DNA from: an uncultured bacterium
GTDB taxonomy: Bacteria > Babelota > Babeliae > Babelales > Vermiphilaceae
Assembly (NCBI GenBank): GCA_963702025.1
Contig: OY969699.1
Location: 1,184,001 to 1,248,000, forward strand
DNA: 64,000 nucleotides
Reading direction: 5' to 3'
Made by a program: the position numbers and the translations under genes. This document shows positions 9,801 to 63,934 of this stretch, piece by piece. Position 1 is the stretch's first letter, and every line of letters starts with the position of its first letter. The notes under the pieces are model-generated. The model was not told the DNA's origin, did no database searches, and saw only the letters and a program-made list of their open reading frames with translations.

Positions 9801-9846
9801 GTCCTTCGATACGAAAACTGCGTTTTCTACTCAGGATGAGCGGAAG
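9801..9846. repeat. Palindromic repeat family A unit
   Basis: Reverse complement matches 54709-54754 with 2 mismatches. Confidence 0.85.
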
Positions 9847-12094: not shown

Positions 12095-12133
12095 CCCTAC
12101 GATACGCGTTAAACCGCTACTCAGGGCAAACGG
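12095..12133. repeat. Family A repeat unit (degenerate)
   Basis: CCCTACGATACG-spacer-CTACTCAGGGCAAACGG. Confidence 0.65.
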
Positions 12134-12201
12134 ATCTCATAATTATTGCAATTTGAATATTTTTCATGATACTCTCTACAGTGAACATAGGGGAGCGGAT
12201 C

Positions 12202-16492: not shown

Positions 16493-17728
16493 ATGAAAAA
16501 TAAAATAATCCTCCTCACACTCGGCATAATTTTTCCCTTTAGCATTAGTGCTATTAATTGGACCCCCTTTGCAAATTTTGTTAATCAAATTGAAAAACGT
16601 GACCTGGCAATCGGTGCTGTGACCCTGACGGTTGGTGGTCTAAGCGGGGTTCTTATCAACAATAAGTATAATGCCAATGCACTTGCACTTGAAAATTTAA
16701 AAATCAAACAAAATAAAGAAAAACAAATAGAACTCCGCAAAAAACAAGAAGAAGAAAAAGCTGAACGGATCAAGCAAGAAGAACAAGACAGAAAAAATAA
16801 AATTGAACAACAAAAAAAGGATGCGCACAGTTTGCTTGATCATATAAAAAATCATTATAACCAGCAGTTTTCTCTTCTAGCATCAGAAAGGCTTGATCAT
16901 GATAAGCAAGCTTTTATTAATAGCATAAGAAGTATGTATAACAGTCGGCCATTTTTAACGTTTTATCAGTCTCTTGAAACGGATATATTACAGTTAAAAG
17001 CCGCGGAAAATATCATACCAGAAAAAGAAACGGTACGAATCGAGCTTGCTGAGAAACTCGAAAAAATAAAAAATAACTACAATCTTATGCTTGCTGACCA
17101 TCAGGAAATTGAGCAACAGAAAAACGATCAATTAAAAAGGCTCGCTGAAGAACATCAACGCAAAAAACAAAAAGAAGATCTTGAGCTTGAGAAAATACGT
17201 AATGACGAACGTTTTAAAAAAAATAAAGAAGAGATGGAGCTTGAAAAATTACGAATCGAGCAACGGCATGCGCGAGAAAAAGCGCAATTAGAGCTTGAAA
17301 AGCTTCATGCAGAAATTGCGTATTACAAAACATCTAAGCAGGATATAACCAAAGAACTCGAGGCAATTAAACACGAACTAAAAAACCGTGACAAAATGCA
17401 ACCGTCATGGGCAGCAGAATTTACGCGACTCATAAAAGATGAGATTACGACATTAAAAAAACGTATGGACACGGTGGAAAATTCAATCGTTGGCAATATT
17501 GCGAGTTTCAAAAAAGATGTTGCTGATGTTAAAAAAGATGTTAGAGATTTCAAGCAAATCCTTGAAAAAAATCAGCCACAGTCATATATATTGCCACCGC
17601 CCTATAATCCAGCGGCACAGCAACCATACAATTCACCAGTTCCGTCACATCAACCACCACCAAGTTTTGGGTATGGTGAAACACAAACTAACCCGGACAT
17701 GGTAGCCATTCCGGTGCCAAGAAGCTAG
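16493..17728 (+). CDS. Exported/membrane-anchored coiled-coil protein with Pro-rich tail
   Basis: Signal, TM segment, long E/K-rich helix, C-terminal PPPY. Confidence 0.8.
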   Translation: MKNKIILLTLGIIFPFSISAINWTPFANFVNQIEKRDLAIGAVTLTVGGLSGVLINNKYNANALALENLKIKQNKEKQIELRKKQEEEKAERIKQEEQDRKNKIEQQKKDAHSLLDHIKNHYNQQFSLLASERLDHDKQAFINSIRSMYNSRPFLTFYQSLETDILQLKAAENIIPEKETVRIELAEKLEKIKNNYNLMLADHQEIEQQKNDQLKRLAEEHQRKKQKEDLELEKIRNDERFKKNKEEMELEKLRIEQRHAREKAQLELEKLHAEIAYYKTSKQDITKELEAIKHELKNRDKMQPSWAAEFTRLIKDEITTLKKRMDTVENSIVGNIASFKKDVADVKKDVRDFKQILEKNQPQSYILPPPYNPAAQQPYNSPVPSHQPPPSFGYGETQTNPDMVAIPVPRS

Positions 17729-17777
17729 TGTAGTAATTAAGGCTTAAGATAAAAACTAGAGACACAATTGAAAAAGG

Positions 17778-17825
17778 CCGCTCGTGGTGAGTAGGCTCTG
17801 CAAGAGCCGTATCGAATCCATGCGG
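17778..17825 (+). repeat. Family A repeat, left flank of the GIY-YIG gene
   Basis: CCGCTCGTGGTGAGT-[GGCTCT GCA AGAGCC]-GTATCGAATCCATGCGG. Confidence 0.9.
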
Positions 17826-17844
17826 CCTAAAAATTTAAGATATT

Positions 17845-18132
17845 ATGAATTGCTTTTATGTATATATTTTAAGATGCAATGATAGCTCTTATTATGTCGG
17901 ACATACTGATAATATTGAAAAAAGAATTGCAGAGCATGTCTCAGGTTCTTATCCCGGTTATACACAAACGCGTTTACCTATAGAGCTTGTTTATATGCAA
18001 GAGTTTGCAAGCCGTGATGAAGCCCTCAACGCAGAACATCAAATAAAGAAATGGAATCGAAAGAAAAAGGAAGCACTTATTGACAATGATTGGAACTCTT
18101 TAAAATTGTTAGCGAAAAAGAAATTCTATTGA
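17845..18132 (+). CDS. Stand-alone GIY-YIG nuclease (UPF0213/YhbQ-like)
   Basis: YVYIL...YYVGHT, conserved R (EKRI), H and E (NAEHQIK). Confidence 0.9.
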   Translation: MNCFYVYILRCNDSSYYVGHTDNIEKRIAEHVSGSYPGYTQTRLPIELVYMQEFASRDEALNAEHQIKKWNRKKKEALIDNDWNSLKLLAKKKFY

Positions 18133-18148
18133 TGAATGTTTATTAAAC

Positions 18149-18194
18149 CCGCATGGTTCGATATGATTGCTTCGCAATCACTCACCACGAGCGG
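18149..18194 (-). repeat. Family A repeat, right flank of the GIY-YIG gene (inverted)
   Basis: Reverse complement CCGCTCGTGGTGAGT-[GATTGC GAA GCAATC]-ATATCGAACCATGCGG. Confidence 0.9.
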
Positions 18195-18240
18195 GTTTTA
18201 TGATTAACTTTTACAATTCTTACCTTGAAGATAATCTTAT

Positions 18241-19920
18241 CTACTTTCTATTTGCTTGCCGTGCAATACAGGCAACAATAAATCCCTCAAAAAGCGGGCT
18301 TGGGTTTCCAAGCCTGCTTTTAAATTCAGGATGTGCTTGGGTGGCAATAAAAAATGGATGGTCCGCAATTTCTAAAAATTCCATTAAGCGTGTGCCATCA
18401 TGCCGTTCATGATAACCGGAAAATGTAATGCCTTTTTGTTCCAGCACATCAACATACACCGGATTCACTTCATAGCGATGACGGTGCCGTTCATTCACGA
18501 CATATTTTTCCTCGTAATACTCTACTTTATTAGCTTTTGCGTAGAGTTGCGCCACTTTACTTTCTTTTTTTACGGTGGCCGCATACCCGCCAAGCCGCAT
18601 CGAGCCACCGATAGAATGCTCGGCAAGCATCTGTTTTTGGGTAGGTAAAATGTCGATAATAGGAAATTCAGTAGCATCATTCACTTCTGTGGTATGTGCC
18701 GTTTTTAAATTGCAACTAGTGCGCGCAAATTCAACGGCAGCCAGCTGCATGCCATAACAAAGTCCCAGATAAGGAATATTATTGTGCCGAACATAGCCGA
18801 TTGTAGAAATCTTTCCTTCCACGCCAGCACTGCCAAAGCCACCGGGAATAATTACCCCATCAAAAAGAGCAAGTATCTTGAGCTGCTCAAGATTCGTTGT
18901 TTCAAACATCTGCGCATTGATCCAATTAATTTCAATGCCAATATTATGCTGCGCCCCGGCATGTACCAATGCCTGATAAATGCTCACATAACTATCAGTG
19001 AGACTAAAATCACCAATGTCCAAATATTTACCCACAATAGCAATTTTGACTTTATAGGATGGATTTTTGATTGCGTTAACCAATCCGTTCCACCTTTGCC
19101 AATCCGGCACTCTTTTAGATGGTAAATGGAAATGGCGCAACACTTTTTGCCCGAGTTGCTCACGTTCCAGGTAGAGGGGCATTTCGTACACCGTATCGAT
19201 ATCAGGCGCAGAGATAATTTGATCTGCATGCACATAAGAACATTGTTCTATCTTTTTCTTGCGAATTTCATCAAGCGGCTGCTTTGCACGGCAAATGATA
19301 AAATCAGGCAAAATTCCTTCTTGCCCCAGAAGCCGTACGGCTTGTTGCGTCGGTTTTGTCTTCATCTCTTGCATATGATCAGGAATCGGCAAGTAGGTGA
19401 CCAACACATAGGCGATACTGTCAGCGCCAAGTTCCCGCTCTAAACCTTTGATTGCAAATAAAAATGGCACGTTTTCATAATCACCGACGGTGCCCCCCAA
19501 TTCTATAATGGCAATCTCATAGCCTGCTGATGCATCTAGGATGCGGCGTTTAACTTCATCCAAAATATGGGGCATAAATTGTACCGTTTGGCCCAAATAT
19601 TCGCCACGTCGTTCACGATCAATAACCGTCTTATAAATTTGGCCGGTGGTTATGTTATTTTTCTTGGGGATATCTTCATCTAAAAATCGTTCATAGGTAC
19701 CCAAATCTTGGTCAATTTCGCCGCCATCTTCTGTTACCCAGACTTCGCCATGTTCCGTGGGCCTCAAAGTCCCTGCGTCGTAATTGATATACGGATCAAT
19801 CTTAATTAAGGTGGTTTTATACCCATGTTCTTTTAAAATCTTGCCCAAGGATGCCGTGGTTACGCCTTTGCCAACCCCGGAAATAACTCCTCCTGCAACA
19901 ACAATAAATTTTGTATTCAT
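18241..19920 (-). CDS. pyrG: CTP synthase
   Basis: GGVISGVGKG, KTKPTQ, GLCYGMQ, RHRHRYEVN, HPE. Confidence 0.97.
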   Translation of the reverse strand: MNTKFIVVAGGVISGVGKGVTTASLGKILKEHGYKTTLIKIDPYINYDAGTLRPTEHGEVWVTEDGGEIDQDLGTYERFLDEDIPKKNNITTGQIYKTVIDRERRGEYLGQTVQFMPHILDEVKRRILDASAGYEIAIIELGGTVGDYENVPFLFAIKGLERELGADSIAYVLVTYLPIPDHMQEMKTKPTQQAVRLLGQEGILPDFIICRAKQPLDEIRKKKIEQCSYVHADQIISAPDIDTVYEMPLYLEREQLGQKVLRHFHLPSKRVPDWQRWNGLVNAIKNPSYKVKIAIVGKYLDIGDFSLTDSYVSIYQALVHAGAQHNIGIEINWINAQMFETTNLEQLKILALFDGVIIPGGFGSAGVEGKISTIGYVRHNNIPYLGLCYGMQLAAVEFARTSCNLKTAHTTEVNDATEFPIIDILPTQKQMLAEHSIGGSMRLGGYAATVKKESKVAQLYAKANKVEYYEEKYVVNERHRHRYEVNPVYVDVLEQKGITFSGYHERHDGTRLMEFLEIADHPFFIATQAHPEFKSRLGNPSPLFEGFIVACIARQANRK

Positions 19921-21256: not shown

Positions 21257-21502
21257 GAAAATCCTTATGTTGTTACTTCTTTGTAACCAATAATTGCAAA
21301 ACATTTATCTAAAATATCTTTTGCATACCTATCCCTTATTAATTAAAACAACTAGGCAAAAGTATAACGGAAAAATAAGAAAAAAAAGTAAATTTATTTA
21401 TTTTATGAGCAAAACCCTTTTTTTTGGTTTTGATAGTTGAATAAACAATAAAAAAGGCCCGTATCGCTACGGACCTTCATAATTAAAGAAGCAGATTATA
21501 TA

Positions 21503-22291
21503 TTAGCCTTTTGGAACCGGCTGTTGAAGTGCGTCAGAACCGCTTATTTTTGCGCGTTTTAGCATTTCTGCTTTATTATTTTTAAATGTTCGTTGATCAG
21601 CATCTGCTTGGATATATTCTCTTGCAGCCCCATCACTAAATACTGCTTGATAAATCTGATTACCTGGCTTGTTAGGATCTGGAGACGTACGTATTTCAAA
21701 GCCAATTACATTTGCCGGAAGAATTGTTTCTCTTCCCAAAAAGTTTTTTATTTTCTTAGCACCAACGCTCGCTAATACGGCACCTTCATGGAGTGGTACT
21801 AAATTATCATGTAACGTTACAATAACGTAATAGACGTCTCCGGTTCTCCATTCAGCAAATCTCCCACTGTTTCCACGAGGAACATCTGGGTGGAATGCAT
21901 TGGTTTCACCACGGTGTAAACGACCAAGAAGATCTTGTATTTGGGTTCCGAACACTTGGTTAGCCAATTTTAACGTTTCTGCAGTCAAATTAAGTCCGCC
22001 AGCAAATGCCATTGAAAATCCTACTGTTGGACCTGCAAGGATTACTCCTAGCGGCATACTTACACCCTTAGCTTTATCAAGAACGTCCACAATGGTATCT
22101 GGAACATGTAATGTAAGTGCGTATGCTTTATGCTGTTTCATCGCATCAGCGGCGCTATTTGCTTTATAGGCATAAATATCAACTGCTGGGAGCACACTAC
22201 CACTTCCATGGACAATCGCATACGCTTGCATTAAAGACCCGGTACATAAAAGCAGGGCCACGCTCATTATTTTTACAAAAGATGGCTTCAT
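21503..22291 (-). CDS. Exported hypothetical protein, tandem paralog 2
   Basis: 262 aa; C-terminal half nearly identical to 22378-23166. Confidence 0.85.
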   Translation of the reverse strand: MKPSFVKIMSVALLLCTGSLMQAYAIVHGSGSVLPAVDIYAYKANSAADAMKQHKAYALTLHVPDTIVDVLDKAKGVSMPLGVILAGPTVGFSMAFAGGLNLTAETLKLANQVFGTQIQDLLGRLHRGETNAFHPDVPRGNSGRFAEWRTGDVYYVIVTLHDNLVPLHEGAVLASVGAKKIKNFLGRETILPANVIGFEIRTSPDPNKPGNQIYQAVFSDGAAREYIQADADQRTFKNNKAEMLKRAKISGSDALQQPVPKG

Positions 22292-22377
22292 TTTTTCCTT
22301 TTTTGATTTAAAAATACTACTCGAGAAAAAGGCCCGTATTGCTACGAGCCTTCATAATTAAAGAAGCAGATTATATA

Positions 22378-23166
22378 TTAGCCTTTTGGAACTGGTTGTT
22401 CAAGTGCGTCAGAACCGCTTATTTTTGCGCGTTTTAGCATTTCTGCTTTATTATTTTTAAATGTTCGTTGATCAGCATCTGCTTGGATATATTCTCTTGC
22501 AGCCCCATCACTAAATACTGCTTGATAAATCTGATTACCTGGCTTGTTAGGATCTGGAGACGTACGTATTTCAAAGCCAATTACATTTGCCGGAAGAATT
22601 GTTTCTCTTCCCAAAAAGTTTTTTATTTTCTTAGCACCAACGCTTGCCAATACGGCACCTTCATGGAGTGGTACTAAATTATCATGTAACGTTACAATAA
22701 CGTAATAGACGTCTCCGGTTCTCCATTCAGCAAATCTCCCACTGTTTCCACGAGGAACATCTGGGTGGAATGCATTGGTTTCACCACGGTGTAAACGACC
22801 GAGAAGGCCTTGTATTTGGGTTCCAAACATTTTATTCGCTTCTATTAAGACCTTTGCGGTGATATCGAATCCTTGAGCAACGGCAACTGAAAATCCTTCA
22901 GTTGGACCGGCAAGAGCTGCCCCTATTGGCGCACTTACACCCTTTGCTACCTCTAACACGTCTGCGACTGCACCTGGAACACTTAATGTAAGTGCATAAG
23001 CTTTATGCTGCCTGATTGCATCCTTGGCATCTTTAGCTTTGTAGGCATAAATATCAACTGCAGGAAGCGCACTCCCGCTTCCATGAACAATAGCATACCC
23101 ATGTAATAATGGTCCGGCAAACAAGAGCAATCCAACGCTCCATGTTTTTAGAAATAATAACTTCAT
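22378..23166 (-). CDS. Exported hypothetical protein, tandem paralog 1
   Basis: 262 aa, AAGGAG RBS, signal peptide. Confidence 0.85.
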   Translation of the reverse strand: MKLLFLKTWSVGLLLFAGPLLHGYAIVHGSGSALPAVDIYAYKAKDAKDAIRQHKAYALTLSVPGAVADVLEVAKGVSAPIGAALAGPTEGFSVAVAQGFDITAKVLIEANKMFGTQIQGLLGRLHRGETNAFHPDVPRGNSGRFAEWRTGDVYYVIVTLHDNLVPLHEGAVLASVGAKKIKNFLGRETILPANVIGFEIRTSPDPNKPGNQIYQAVFSDGAAREYIQADADQRTFKNNKAEMLKRAKISGSDALEQPVPKG

Positions 23167-23251: not shown

Positions 23252-24481
23252 CTGAAGTTCGGACATAAATAGAAGAGACTCCTGTTCTGGTGTATTTTTA
23301 AAAAAAACAAAGAAACACCAAAAACAGGAGAATCATGATTGCCAAAAAAGATATCATAAAAATGATTAATTCGCTAAAAGTATTTAACATTCATGTTGCC
23401 GACTTCATCGGATCGATGATTTGGGGGTTCCAACAAGCAAAAAAGCTTAGAATTTCCAGCATTTCTGCTGCATCACCCGGCAAGTATGAATCTAACTATA
23501 AAAACATCACAAGATCTCTAAATAAATTAGAAGTTTCTCAGCTTTCAGAAGCTCTTTTGTCATTTCAGGACCAAGCGAGTGATATCCTATTGCTCGATTT
23601 TACTGAGATGACTCGAAAAAATGCTAAACGCACTGCTTATATTGGATATTTAAAAGATGGAGAAACACTTGGCTACAGCATATTGGCACTGAGTGTACCA
23701 TTCAAAGGAAGATCTAAAATAATATTTGCTGATGTAATATCTTCTTCAATCATTGCTGAGAGCGCAACTGGAAAGTGGAAGCTTATTCAAGAAGCTTTAC
23801 GCCCATTAATTCCTTTGCTTCAGAGTAAGATAATTGTCATTGATCGTGAACTTTGCAATGAGGAGATGATCAAGTTCTTTCATAAACATCAAATTCATTA
23901 TTCAATACGCTTAAAAATAAGTGCTGGAAAAAACCAAATTATTATTACTGACAAAAAAGGCAGCAGGATTAACATTTCTATTACTCGCGGCTCAAAGAAA
24001 AATTGGAAAGGGGTTTATTATAAAGGGAAAATCAAAGTAAATATTGCTGCTGAATGGCAAAGCAATATGCCTGAGCCAATGTATATAATTACAGATTGTC
24101 AGCCAAGTGAAGGTTTAAAATACTATAAAAAACGCATGAAAATAGAGGAAAGTTTCAAAGATATAAAAGATAAATTGGGCTTTACAAAAATCATGAATAA
24201 AACTTTAGGCAATCTCCTTAAAATGCTCCTCATTGGATTAATTGCCTACAATCTATTGATTTTGATAGGCGAAATGCTGCGATTACAAGTGCTCACGAAG
24301 CGCGAAAGGCTTAAGTTCAGCGGTTTGCATTTATTGCTTAATATGATTTATTCATATTCTCGATCCAAACTTCGGAAAGCACTACGTCAAGTTGAATTCC
24401 ATCTGCTTGAAAATAATTCAGATGATGTTGTTTGGTTAAGAGCCTTTAGGAATTGTTAAAATGAAATTGTCCGAACTTAAG
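23252..24481 (+). mobile_element. IS4-family insertion sequence, 1230 bp
   Basis: 14-bp terminal IRs CTGAAGTTCGGACA / TGTCCGAACTTAAG (1 mismatch); TTGAAT direct repeats at 23246-23251 and 24482-24487. Confidence 0.92.
23335..24459 (+). CDS. DDE transposase
   Basis: LLDFT, VIDRE and Y-x2-R-x3-E-x6-K (YKKRMKIEESFKDIK). Confidence 0.9.
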   Translation: MIAKKDIIKMINSLKVFNIHVADFIGSMIWGFQQAKKLRISSISAASPGKYESNYKNITRSLNKLEVSQLSEALLSFQDQASDILLLDFTEMTRKNAKRTAYIGYLKDGETLGYSILALSVPFKGRSKIIFADVISSSIIAESATGKWKLIQEALRPLIPLLQSKIIVIDRELCNEEMIKFFHKHQIHYSIRLKISAGKNQIIITDKKGSRINISITRGSKKNWKGVYYKGKIKVNIAAEWQSNMPEPMYIITDCQPSEGLKYYKKRMKIEESFKDIKDKLGFTKIMNKTLGNLLKMLLIGLIAYNLLILIGEMLRLQVLTKRERLKFSGLHLLLNMIYSYSRSKLRKALRQVEFHLLENNSDDVVWLRAFRNC

Positions 24482-30118: not shown

Positions 30119-30194
30119 TCCTTCGACGAGCTCAGGACGAACGGTTAGGGAGTCCGTTCGTGGTGAGTGATGCCGAAGGCATCGTATCGAACCA
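30119..30194. repeat. Inverted pair of family A units
   Basis: TCCTTCGACGAGCTCAGGACGAACGG, 9-nt spacer, CCGTTCGTGGTGAGT-[GATGCC GAA GGCATC]-GTATCGAACCA. Confidence 0.85.
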
Positions 30195-31847: not shown

Positions 31848-32118
31848 ATTTTTACCATTCTTTTGACGATTATCATTAAAACAACATGCAGAACAGAATA
31901 TCACAAAAATAATTTTACGTGAAAACTTTACATCCCTGGCAAAATCATCCTGACATGCTACACTTGAACGGTAATATTAAGCCCATTTAAAGAAAATATG
32001 ACTAAAAAAATAAGGATCTTTTGTGGACCAAATACACCGTGCGAGCAGAACAACAAAATTACTCTATTTAGAAAATTTCAGTCCAATGCCGGCAACTTAA
32101 ACATTAGAAAATTCATTT

Positions 32119-32423
32119 TTAATCGCCTTCCAGGCGGTGGCCAAAGGGTGTTAAATCTGAACACCCTTTGGAATCCCCAGACCAAGGCTGCGCCTTTGGA
32201 TCCCTCATTTCGTGCCAATTCGCGACCTCGCGCTTCGCGCTCCAATCGCTCAGTGGCACTTGTCTGAATTTACTTATTAAACTAAAAATCAGCAGAAAAA
32301 TCCGTTCATGGTGAGTGCCGCCTGCAGCGCAGCGTATCGAACCATAAAAAAGTTTCTAAGTTAGAAACAAAATGTTCGTAAGCAAAAATAACTGAGCCCG
32401 CTCGGGCGCTTTCGCGACCGGCT
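32119..32423 (+). repeat. Long structured repeat, left copy
   Basis: Inverted homolog of 40599-40927; core ~32119-32309 nearly identical. Confidence 0.9.
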
Positions 32424-32815
32424 TGCCTTTAGTCCCGAGCGAAGTCGAGGGGCCCGTTGCGGGCTCTACGTACATTTAATGTATGAAACGTTGAGATCTG
32501 ATTGCGATATATGTATGAACCGACGCAGCTCCCGAAGGGAGATGAGTTGGTGAGTTTATCGCATGGGGATTCTAAAGGGCTCCCCCTTTAGTGTGTGGTG
32601 GCCTGGAGGGGTTCACAAGAATCCCTCCAGTTTAAAATAATTTTGCGAAAACATTCCCGCGTTTTATATCTTTGGTGACAGGGAGCGTGGGGGTATTTTC
32701 AAGAATACCACCACGTTTATCGCACGCACGTGAGCAATCTCCGTGACATCAAACATATGACAATCAGAAAACTAAAGCAAAATGGACCGAATGTTCGCGT
32801 GGCTTACGCGGTTGA

Positions 32816-40427: not shown

Positions 40428-40568
40428 ATGGTGAGTGAGAGCCCTTCGATAAACTCGGGAGTAAATACAAGCATCAGCCACACTCCGTTCGTGCTGACCC
40501 TTCGGCAAACTCAGGAGTAAACGCCCAGCCTGCCCGCCGAAGCTTTAGCGAAGGCTGGGTCGAAGCAT
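40428..40568. repeat. Nested cluster of family A and B repeats
   Basis: CCCTTCG..ACTC(G/A)GGAGTAAA twice and CCGCCGAAGCTTTAGCGAAGG inside an outer CCGTTCGTGCTGA...GTCGAAGCA. Confidence 0.75.
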
Positions 40569-40598
40569 TTTTTATCAGAATTATATTTTATTTGGCCT

Positions 40599-40927
40599 AG
40601 CCGGTCGGCGGAGTTTATCCTGAGCTTGTCGAAGGGCGCCCGAGCGGGCTCCTGTTATTTTTTCTCTTTAACTTAATTGTGCTAACTCAGAAAGTTTTTT
40701 CATGTTCAATAAACTATGCTGCGCGCACCGCTCAGTATGAACGGATTTTTCTGCTAGTTCTTAGTTTAATAAGTAAATTCAGACAAGTGCCACTGAGCGA
40801 TTGGAGCGCGAAGCGCGAGGTCGCGAATTGGCACGAAATGAGGGATCCAAAGGCGCAGCCTTGGTCTGGGGATTCCAAAGGGTATTCAGATTTAATACCC
40901 TTTGGCCACCGCCTGGAGGGCGATTAA
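40599..40927 (-). repeat. Long structured repeat, right copy
   Basis: Inverted homolog of 32119-32423. Confidence 0.9.
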
Positions 40928-41034
40928 TAAATAATATTCCTACCGCTGGCCGCGTAGGCCAAATTAAAAATAAATTTCTTAATGCTATAATTTGCGAGCA
41001 AGCAAAATTCGAGGAATTAAACCTGCAGAGTTTT

Positions 41035-54665: not shown

Positions 54666-54770
54666 TTCTACGCCAAGTCCCTCGAAAGGGCTCGGGAGTA
54701 AACACGTCCTTCCGCTCATCCTGAGTAGAAAACGTAGTTTTCATATCGAAGGACGCCTGGCTTCGCCATC
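54666..54770 (+). repeat. Family B repeat after tRNA-Asn with nested family A units
   Basis: TTCTACGCC...CGCCTGGC enclosing 54709-54754. Confidence 0.75.
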
Positions 54771-62795: not shown

Positions 62796-63782
62796 ATGAA
62801 AAAAGTTAGGTTATTAGTTTTAGTTATGCTTGGTTTTGCTCAGGTTAGTGGCACAGCAGCAGATTATCCAAAAATGTCGGCAAATGAATTAAATGAAGCT
62901 CTTATTATAGCTGTAAAAAAAGGTTCTTCAGACGACGTGCAAAAGCTAGTAAGATCAGGGGCTAATGTTAATCAAAAAATTACTTACACCAAGTCTAATT
63001 ATGATGATTATGATTCTGATATTACTTGTACACTTCTAGAGTATGCTGCCAAAAATGGTTATGTAGATATTGTAAAGGAGCTTATACAGAAGCTTAAAAA
63101 TGATGATATCAATACAGCTCTTATTTTAGCCGCAGAAGAAGGCCATGCAAATGTGGTAAGAGAGCTTGTACAAGCAAAACCTAAAGTTGATGTTATCAAT
63201 ACAGCTTTAATTTCTTCTGCAAGAAACTTTCCGGGTATTACTACAAATCCTTCATCGGGTCGACGTGATCGTACAGCTCTCAAAGATTATTTAAATGTAA
63301 TAAAAGAGCTTATAAAAGCAGGCGCTAATGTTAATCATGCAAACGAGTATGGAAATACAGCTCTTATTGAAATTATAGAATGTTCTCTTTATACAGAAGC
63401 ACAGAAGAATAATAGAGTAGAAATTATACAAGCTCTTTTAAAAGCAAAAGCCAATGTTAATCATGCTAACAAATTAAGTGATACAGCTCTTATACGAGCT
63501 ATACAAAAACATGATTTTGATGCTGTGCAAATTCTTTTAAAAACTCCGGGAATTAACGTTAACTATGCTGATAAAAACGGGAATACGGCTCTTATAATTG
63601 CTTTACAATGTATAGAATATACATATGTTGCTGGTAACAATGAACAATACAATAATTGCTTAAATAGCCAAAAGATTTTAGAAATACTTTTACAAACTCC
63701 AGGAATTAATCCCCATCATGTTAATAAAAATGGTGATACAGCTATTATGTTGTTTGAGAAACTAAAATCAAGAGTAGCCTAA
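62796..63782 (+). CDS. Exported ankyrin-repeat protein
   Basis: GANVN, GNTALI repeats; signal peptide. Confidence 0.9.
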   Translation: MKKVRLLVLVMLGFAQVSGTAADYPKMSANELNEALIIAVKKGSSDDVQKLVRSGANVNQKITYTKSNYDDYDSDITCTLLEYAAKNGYVDIVKELIQKLKNDDINTALILAAEEGHANVVRELVQAKPKVDVINTALISSARNFPGITTNPSSGRRDRTALKDYLNVIKELIKAGANVNHANEYGNTALIEIIECSLYTEAQKNNRVEIIQALLKAKANVNHANKLSDTALIRAIQKHDFDAVQILLKTPGINVNYADKNGNTALIIALQCIEYTYVAGNNEQYNNCLNSQKILEILLQTPGINPHHVNKNGDTAIMLFEKLKSRVA

Positions 63783-63934
63783 AGGCCACCGCTAGCCCTT
63801 TTTTAATGCATTCCAATGAAAAAAACAACTAAGAATTATGAAGTAAGTTAAGGAATTTGTTATTTTTGCAGTGTAAAAAATCTTGACACTAGTGAAAACG
63901 AAATATTAAATTTCAGGAAAAGAAAGGCTCAAGA

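Follow-up and report, generated by a model that had tools for sequence, protein, structure and literature searches.

Background

The closest described system to the locus reported here is that of the Ssn nucleases (Chenal et al. 2025; PMC11893778), GIY-YIG proteins of ~95 aa within cd10448, whose genes are flanked by NTS or SRM hairpins and which cleave ssDNA upstream of the hairpin, at a distance of a few bases. In the Discussion of that paper, the NTS-ssnA-NTS arrangement is likened to an insertion sequence and an analogy to IS200 and REP is drawn. Its Results section describes a single in vivo function for an Ssn protein, the restriction of incoming DNA by SsnA in Neisseria, and the legend of its Figure 3 lists Y6, Y17 and E64 as essential SsnA residues.

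We analysed a 64,000-nt stretch of an uncultured bacterium of the Vermiphilaceae (Babelota; contig OY969699.1, positions 1,184,001 to 1,248,000), hereafter the window. The host genome (G000) is a single contig of 1.6 Mb with 39% GC and is 95% complete. Within the window lies a gene that resembles the Ssn genes in encoding a ~95-aa single-domain GIY-YIG protein (95 aa here, <150 aa) between inverted tagged hairpins of which many dispersed copies exist. An initial annotation had proposed that this nuclease is the autonomous partner of non-autonomous hairpin elements, in the manner of a REP/RAYT system.

Results

The locus and its predicted nuclease

The gene occupies 17845..18132 (+ strand) and, as initially annotated, is bracketed by two inverted hairpins. 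The left hairpin (17776..17827, + strand, unit start 17778) consists of a CCGCTC tag, a GTGG/CCAT stem, TGAG and TCGAA boxes and a variable inner stem-loop. The right hairpin (18145..18198, - strand, unit start 18194) is inverted, such that the 5' CCGCTC tags of both units point outward from the gene. The earlier reading that the central hairpins differ in sequence and still pair was correct, the two inner stems being GGCTCT/AGAGCC and GATTGC/GCAATC. The fold z-score is -4.1 for the left hairpin on the + strand and -5.5 for the right hairpin on the - strand, with the opposite strands folding more weakly (-3.1 and -4.6, respectively). An Rfam scan of 17700-18300 returned nothing at E<=1.

For ~40 nt past each hairpin, the cassette continues into arms that are common to a family of gene-less MITEs, a feature absent from the initial annotation. 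The left arm covers 17736..17775 (+ strand), with homology from 17751 and the outermost ~15 nt being a decayed terminal repeat; the right arm covers 18199..18240 (- strand), with homology to ~18229, and ends at the stop codon of pyrG. We looked for a target duplication at the ends of the window cassette and saw none. The left neighbour (16493..17728, + strand) encodes a 411-aa coiled-coil protein with no Pfam match, and the right neighbour (18241..19920, - strand) is the CTP synthase gene pyrG, named from reading the sequence and not from a library match. Elsewhere in the window, two 262-aa genes that are almost the same in their 3' portions lie in tandem at 21451-23166, and a coding region labelled ankyrin-like from reading its repeats lies at 62900-63800.

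PF01541 (E 1.8e-20) is the sole Pfam family above the cut-off in the 95-aa protein; a weak T5orf172 match covers the same stretch, and NCBIfam gave only a sub-threshold match to a group I intron endonuclease. The nearest relatives are mostly from Babeliales/Dependentiae MAGs. Residues Y7, Y17, G19, R27, H31 and E64 are invariant among 18 relatives, and the residues equivalent to Y6, Y17 and E64 of SsnA are invariant among relatives of the protein. The catalytic-type residues of the protein are intact.

A dispersed hairpin family

In a hairpin unit, the CCGYTC tag is followed by one strand of a 4-nt stem and the TGAG box; next come a variable inner part, either a stem-loop or a short loop, then the TCGAA box and the other strand of the stem. 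A genome-wide count, which the initial annotation had called for, gave 116 matches to one pattern and none in five shuffled genomes, while a looser scan found 149 units and 0-2 per shuffle (five shuffles). In a search that did not demand pairing, 116 of the 120 scored units had Watson-Crick pairs at both central stem positions, whereas permutation gave 45 on average and 59 at most; 12 of the 132 anchored units were left unscored for having no TCGAA partner. The 114 tagged units comprise 17 head-to-head pairs, 18 tail-to-tail pairs and 45 singles. The tags are 5-18 nt apart in 16 of the 17 head-to-head pairs, and only 15 of the 114 units are within long ORFs, which make up 82% of the genome.

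The gene-less copies listed for the window are of several kinds. Full units were found at 9802..9843 (- strand) and 54712..54753 (+ strand), both single and of the ATCC/GGAC stem type; at 30119/30154, which form a head-to-head pair with 9 nt between the tags (30119..30194); and at 32302..32344 (+ strand). The remaining entries are of other kinds: those at 12095 (12095..12135, - strand) and ~40720 are degenerate, those listed at 32431 and 40613 are untagged variants, the former of the CCCGAG/TCGAG type (32426..32453, + strand), and 40428-40568 belongs to a mosaic of nested units (40428..40637) that includes a short untagged unit at 40615. The full unit at 32302 is within a 286-bp inverted repeat (32107-32392 and 40654-40939) whose copies are 87% identical and hold additional palindromes beside the hairpin unit.

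Two further small palindromes were seen. An untagged unit of 22-23 nt (YTRTCCTGAGC..GTCGAAGG) occurs in 11 copies, for example at window 40615 and at G000:549489, 880867 and 1093139; GCGGAG precedes seven of these, and close variants precede most others. Several of the copies are inside the loop of another hairpin, which suggests a preferred insertion target. A second palindrome, of ~29 nt, has a fixed insertion point at G000:164763, 549528, 1093178 and 1530093, and three of these four insertions are within the GTA-TCGAA box of host hairpins.

Association of gene and repeat across the phylum

Three queries, namely the protein, the hairpin motif and PF01797, were run against a single set of 150 phylum genomes. 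An in-group gene, defined as a best match of E<=1e-20 (a cut-off chosen after a gap in the scores was visible), was found in 48 of them. The motif was present in 44 of the 48 genomes with an in-group gene compared to 26 of the 102 without; at least 10 repeats were found in 28 of 48 versus 9 of 102, and at least 40 in 17 of 48 versus 1 of 102, counts that cover related, non-independent genomes, such that p-values derived from them overstate the association. The exceptions are the nine genomes with at least 10 repeats where no in-group gene was found, and four with the gene and no match to the strict pattern. Among the 16 genomes with distant GIY-YIG matches only, 12 were without the motif. Repeat abundance thus follows the gene across the phylum and is not independent of it.

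The repeat shows no such link with Y1_Tnp/RAYT, at least 10 copies being present in 11 of 53 genomes with Y1_Tnp and 26 of 97 without. A PF01797 (Y1/RAYT) search of the single-contig host genome also found none. The possibility, raised with the original proposal, that a RAYT elsewhere in the genome accounts for the repeats is therefore not borne out.

The flanks were compared by a test for inverted repeats that makes no use of the motif. Inverted repeats surround 37 of 47 in-group genes and 19 of 22 Ssn-type genes, and none of the six UPF0213 or three SLX1-like genes. For 26 of the 47 in-group genes, the best match of the upstream arm was the downstream arm of the same gene. In-frame stretches <70 aa, duplicates and loci without a tblastn match (L008, L109) had been left out before the tree and flank counts; L003 and L080 were restored by coordinates for the tree and only L080 for the flank count, from which L061 was excluded for its short flanks. 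With most of the genes flanked and their loci non-syntenic, the in-group does not have the look of a syntenic, unflanked set of orthologues, and the predicted co-occurrence and flanking across genomes are both seen. The link spans the phylum and reaches loci of Sphingomonadales and Chloroflexota. We conclude that the gene-repeat system is real and well supported.

The host genome also has two other in-group paralogues, each with its own dispersed hairpin variant. A hairpin type with a YACAC tag (19 copies) flanks the frameshifted paralogue L007, and a third type (four copies) flanks L002. The latter (G000:C1:490356-490760) lies directly behind the stop codon of typA/bipA, and ~48 bp of the typA/bipA 3' end recur immediately behind its cassette. 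Three small SLX1-like GIY-YIG genes, L003, L004 and L008 (G000:C1:1567658, 1019370 and 1568458), have other palindromic repeats close by, and one of them adjoins a tRNA-like sequence; in the inverted-flank test, L004 was negative.

Evidence of movement

The pyrG site was compared in seven congeners (G155, G153, G151, G154, G131, G124 and G152). In G155, G153 and G151, pyrG adjoins the convergent coiled-coil gene and the cassette is absent (homology of the coiled-coil partner was checked for G153 only, E 9e-10), so the empty sites sought in relatives do exist. The site in G154 holds an inverted gene-less derivative and a cassette of another hairpin type, the neighbours of pyrG differ in G131 and G124, and the G152 contig stops there. 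Since the empty sites come from ~80%-identical species, the exact junctions and the direction, gain or loss, are uncertain. G153 and G131 carry cassettes with 79-81% identity to that of the window, but at loci unrelated to its site, and the host genome has a copy of 92% identity at G000:164823 that is truncated at the 5' end. Joint or excised forms of the cassette were sought in four soil contig sets, with none found at a depth too low to be informative.

Hairpin units are also inserted within conserved genes. Two sites in mnmE and one each in argS and holB contain in-frame units, and the orthologues of congeners, compared for these three genes, either lack them or have different inserts there; the gene names are a reading of the sequences. 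Insertions are also present in uvrC and transketolase. Codon ~388 of mnmE (L111) and codon ~58 of holB (L114) are hot spots with different in-frame palindromic inserts among several congeners.

A probable DDE-transposon shell around the cassette

Approximately 14 gene-less derivatives in the host genome carry the inner and outer arms of the cassette. The start of the gene is kept in those at 140116 and 507738, and its end in those at 207593 and 763969. Both outer terminal repeats are present in ten derivatives, eight of which are bordered by direct repeats of 6-7 bp that differ at no more than one position, as read by eye. The same terminal ends bound elements of 995-996 bp encoding a 296-aa PF13612 transposase in G155 (two copies) and G124; PF13612 is a family that we take to be IS982. 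The parental PF13612 transposase was not found in the host genome. With the terminal repeats of an autonomous DDE element and target duplications in eight of ten, the derivatives have what characterizes IS982-type MITEs, and they were likely moved by DDE transposition and not by the nuclease. The window copy is not an intact MITE of this type: it keeps the inner arms of the shell, its outer ~15 nt are decayed and it has no duplication.

The part of the original proposal that made the GIY-YIG enzyme the autonomous partner is accordingly to be qualified. The gene-repeat link stands, but the derivatives nearest to the cassette carry DDE ends and duplications, which makes them ambiguous as evidence that the nuclease moved them. 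Conversely, a pattern for the DDE ends matches 21 places in the genome, compared to 116-149 hairpin units; most units, and the gene-bearing cassettes of congeners, are without the shell, so DDE transposition is insufficient to explain the whole family.

Two further possibilities were rejected. The multi-copy DDE_Tnp_1 IS of the window (23335-24459) has different ends and was ruled out as parent of the shell, and a search of 61 family genomes with the decayed outer end of the window copy, considered as a separate terminal-repeat family, returned only the self-match. The DDE_Tnp_1 IS has five equally scoring copies, of which the one at G000:C1:852240 is inside a lone left MITE arm with an 8-bp duplication; this arm stops where the hairpin would begin. 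In G153, a 70-bp element (L139:1501-1570) consists of two terminal repeats alone and is either an empty shell or a deletion product of a hairpin-bearing MITE.

Discussion

The explanation that we favour, and consider probable, is that the protein is an Ssn-like cognate ssDNA nuclease which, by nicking just 5' of the tag, promotes the copying of hairpins and cassettes via host repair, with the capture by a DDE shell being secondary. Its observed basis is the anatomy of the locus, the repeat family, the gene-repeat association, the empty sites and the in-frame insertions in genes; the ssDNA specificity, the cut position, the mode of spread and the causal role of the predicted nuclease are what we infer. 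The gene and its two hairpins would constitute a small unit that comes to lie at unrelated sites in related genomes. The predicted GIY-YIG protein would bind its own hairpin as ssDNA and, like SsnA, cleave slightly upstream of it, here a few bases 5' of CCGYTC, a position suggested by the loss of homology between gene-bearing copies within ~1-10 nt outside the tags and by the tag spacing in head-to-head pairs. The cut would then be likely to seed new hairpin copies through host repair. A GIY-YIG hydrolase is not known to have a strand-transfer step, and for that reason the spread would proceed by a nick with host recombination or template switching. As a second layer, one gene-bearing cassette could have been captured between IS982-type DDE transposon ends, after which the DDE transposon would have spread internally deleted MITE copies; the window copy, which has the gene, keeps the decayed arms of the shell. 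A point against this explanation is that, both in the main tree and by the solved structures nearest to it, the protein comes to lie beside the unflanked housekeeping UPF0213 proteins.

The evidence for the shell could be taken further, with the cassette and its derivatives as passive cargo of the IS982-type element and the GIY-YIG gene riding along and mobilising nothing. The ten derivatives with both terminal repeats, eight of them with direct flanks, the identical ends of the PF13612 elements in G155 and G124 and the inner arms of the window copy all fit such a reading. We nevertheless regard it as unlikely, given that the DDE ends are at only 21 places, that cassettes of congeners carry the gene without the shell and that the link of gene and repeat is phylum-wide and extends to the Sphingomonadales and Chloroflexota loci. 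The protein could instead be a domesticated host nuclease that cuts hairpin-bearing ssDNA, for example to restrict incoming DNA, while the repeats spread independently through host replication errors. This is the sole type of in vivo function described for an Ssn protein in the Results of PMC11893778, and a mostly intergenic distribution of units (15 of 114 within long ORFs) is what it would lead one to expect. However, the patchy presence of the gene (48 of 150 genomes), in several copies per genome, many of them broken and at changing loci, is a better fit to a selfish element, which makes domestication rather improbable.

A RAYT or IS200-type HUH transposase, since lost or unassembled, might also have spread the repeats as ordinary REPs. 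The arrangement of the tagged units, with singles beside both kinds of inverted pair, is REPIN-like, and in a genome that is 95% complete the gene could be missing. With no PF01797 match in the genome, no association between Y1_Tnp and the repeat in the 150 genomes and no GTAG tag, this is already largely excluded, and we give it very little credence. Going beyond the nuclease-and-repair explanation that we favour, it can be speculated that several distinct ~95-aa GIY-YIG lineages are the mobilising enzymes of minimal bacterial transposons (hairpin-gene-hairpin, ~420 bp). Ssn would then be one such lineage and the in-group another, which recognises a hairpin code of its own and could be the mover that RPE/CGTC-like palindromes have lacked, those inserted in frame in essential genes among them. 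This broader generalization is tentative, and at present we are inclined to doubt it.

If the enzyme does cut its own hairpin, the Ssn toolbox of site-specific ssDNA nucleases would be widened by one with a target unlike NTS/SRM, drawn from a protein group that an SRM search does not mark. The locus would also offer a small test system for the open hypothesis of Chenal et al. that cassettes of this kind move and multiply the repeats that flank them. It comes with a warning: MITE-like derivatives do not prove cassette mobility, since a captured DDE shell can give rise to them.

Comparison with known systems

The resemblance to Ssn extends to the orientation of the flanking repeats, which is as at the Azospirillum lipoferum 4B gene L081, and to the same catalytic-type residues. 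In a pairwise comparison, the 95-aa protein and L081 are 40% identical (E 6e-20 over 87 residues). In PMC11893778, homologues are filtered by blastp against SsnA of N. meningitidis (E<1e-10, 75% cover); with L081 as a proxy for SsnA, such a filter may well catch the 95-aa protein. The differences are in phylogeny and in the hairpin. The protein falls outside a clade (support 100/99) of 22 Ssn-type proteins in an 80-row tree of 104 columns, in which the bootstrap had not converged and the Ssn clade is anchored by the SRM-flanked L081, from one of Chenal's 29 genomes, N. meningitidis SsnA itself being absent. The hairpin has an internal loop, with TGAG/TCGAA boxes and a variable inner stem, and fails the SRM pattern. 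That pattern matched none of 60 in-group locus rows, some of them duplicated, and is insensitive, matching only 4 of 22 Ssn-type loci. In the host genome there are two SRM matches and no NTS match, neither of the two being close to a GIY-YIG gene. An Ssn-type locus, L033, has NTS-like stems behind the same CCGCTCAT tag, which hints at a common origin of the hairpins.

By sequence, the closest solved structures are of the UPF0213 type (B. halodurans BH0048, PDB 1zg2, E 3.6e-17). In the 80-row tree, the in-group clusters with YazA of B. subtilis and YhbQ of E. coli at 98/95, and YazA outscores the Ssn proxy L081 against the 95-aa protein (E 4e-25 vs 6e-20). In a 38-row subset, the in-group stands alone (support 81), and the alternative of a sister relationship to Ssn is not rejected (p-AU 0.52). 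Taken together, these trees are compatible with either UPF0213 or Ssn as the closest group. In their surroundings the two groups are different: UPF0213 genes are unflanked (0/6), with YazA overlapped between trmN and rsmI, whereas in-group genes are mostly flanked by inverted repeats (37/47) and have no stable gene context.

The CGTC-tagged repeats of Di Nocera et al. 2013 are said to be without a dedicated transposase. Compared with the text passages of PMC3733652, whose Figure 2 may include a related consensus, the units described here share with those repeats and with RAYT/REPIN systems the occurrence as single units and as head-to-head or tail-to-tail pairs, and the in-frame insertions in repair and housekeeping genes. 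They are also REP-like in forming inverted pairs that are mostly extragenic, but there is no HUH enzyme (PF01797) and no GTAG tag, the tag being CCGYTC. The gene-less derivatives resemble IS982-derived MITEs such as those of Cardinium (PMC9769881): both are gene-less, of ~220-270 bp, and end in terminal repeats that match those of a DDE element of ~1 kb. In contrast to those MITEs, the interior here consists of the hairpin pair and remnants of the GIY-YIG gene and not of transposase remnants.

Among the results listed by literature searches, which leave out most subscription journals, none describes this protein group or motif. The layout of a GIY-YIG gene between hairpins is already published for Ssn, and the idea of a mobile element is in print as a hypothesis in the Discussion of PMC11893778. 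Beyond the likeness to Ssn, the analysis found sites lacking the cassette, gene copies dispersed over several loci and the DDE shell. To the published picture it adds a group of proteins that lies outside the Ssn clade and has a hairpin of its own, indications from genome comparison that the cassette has moved, and the caveat that a DDE shell can account for MITE-like derivatives.
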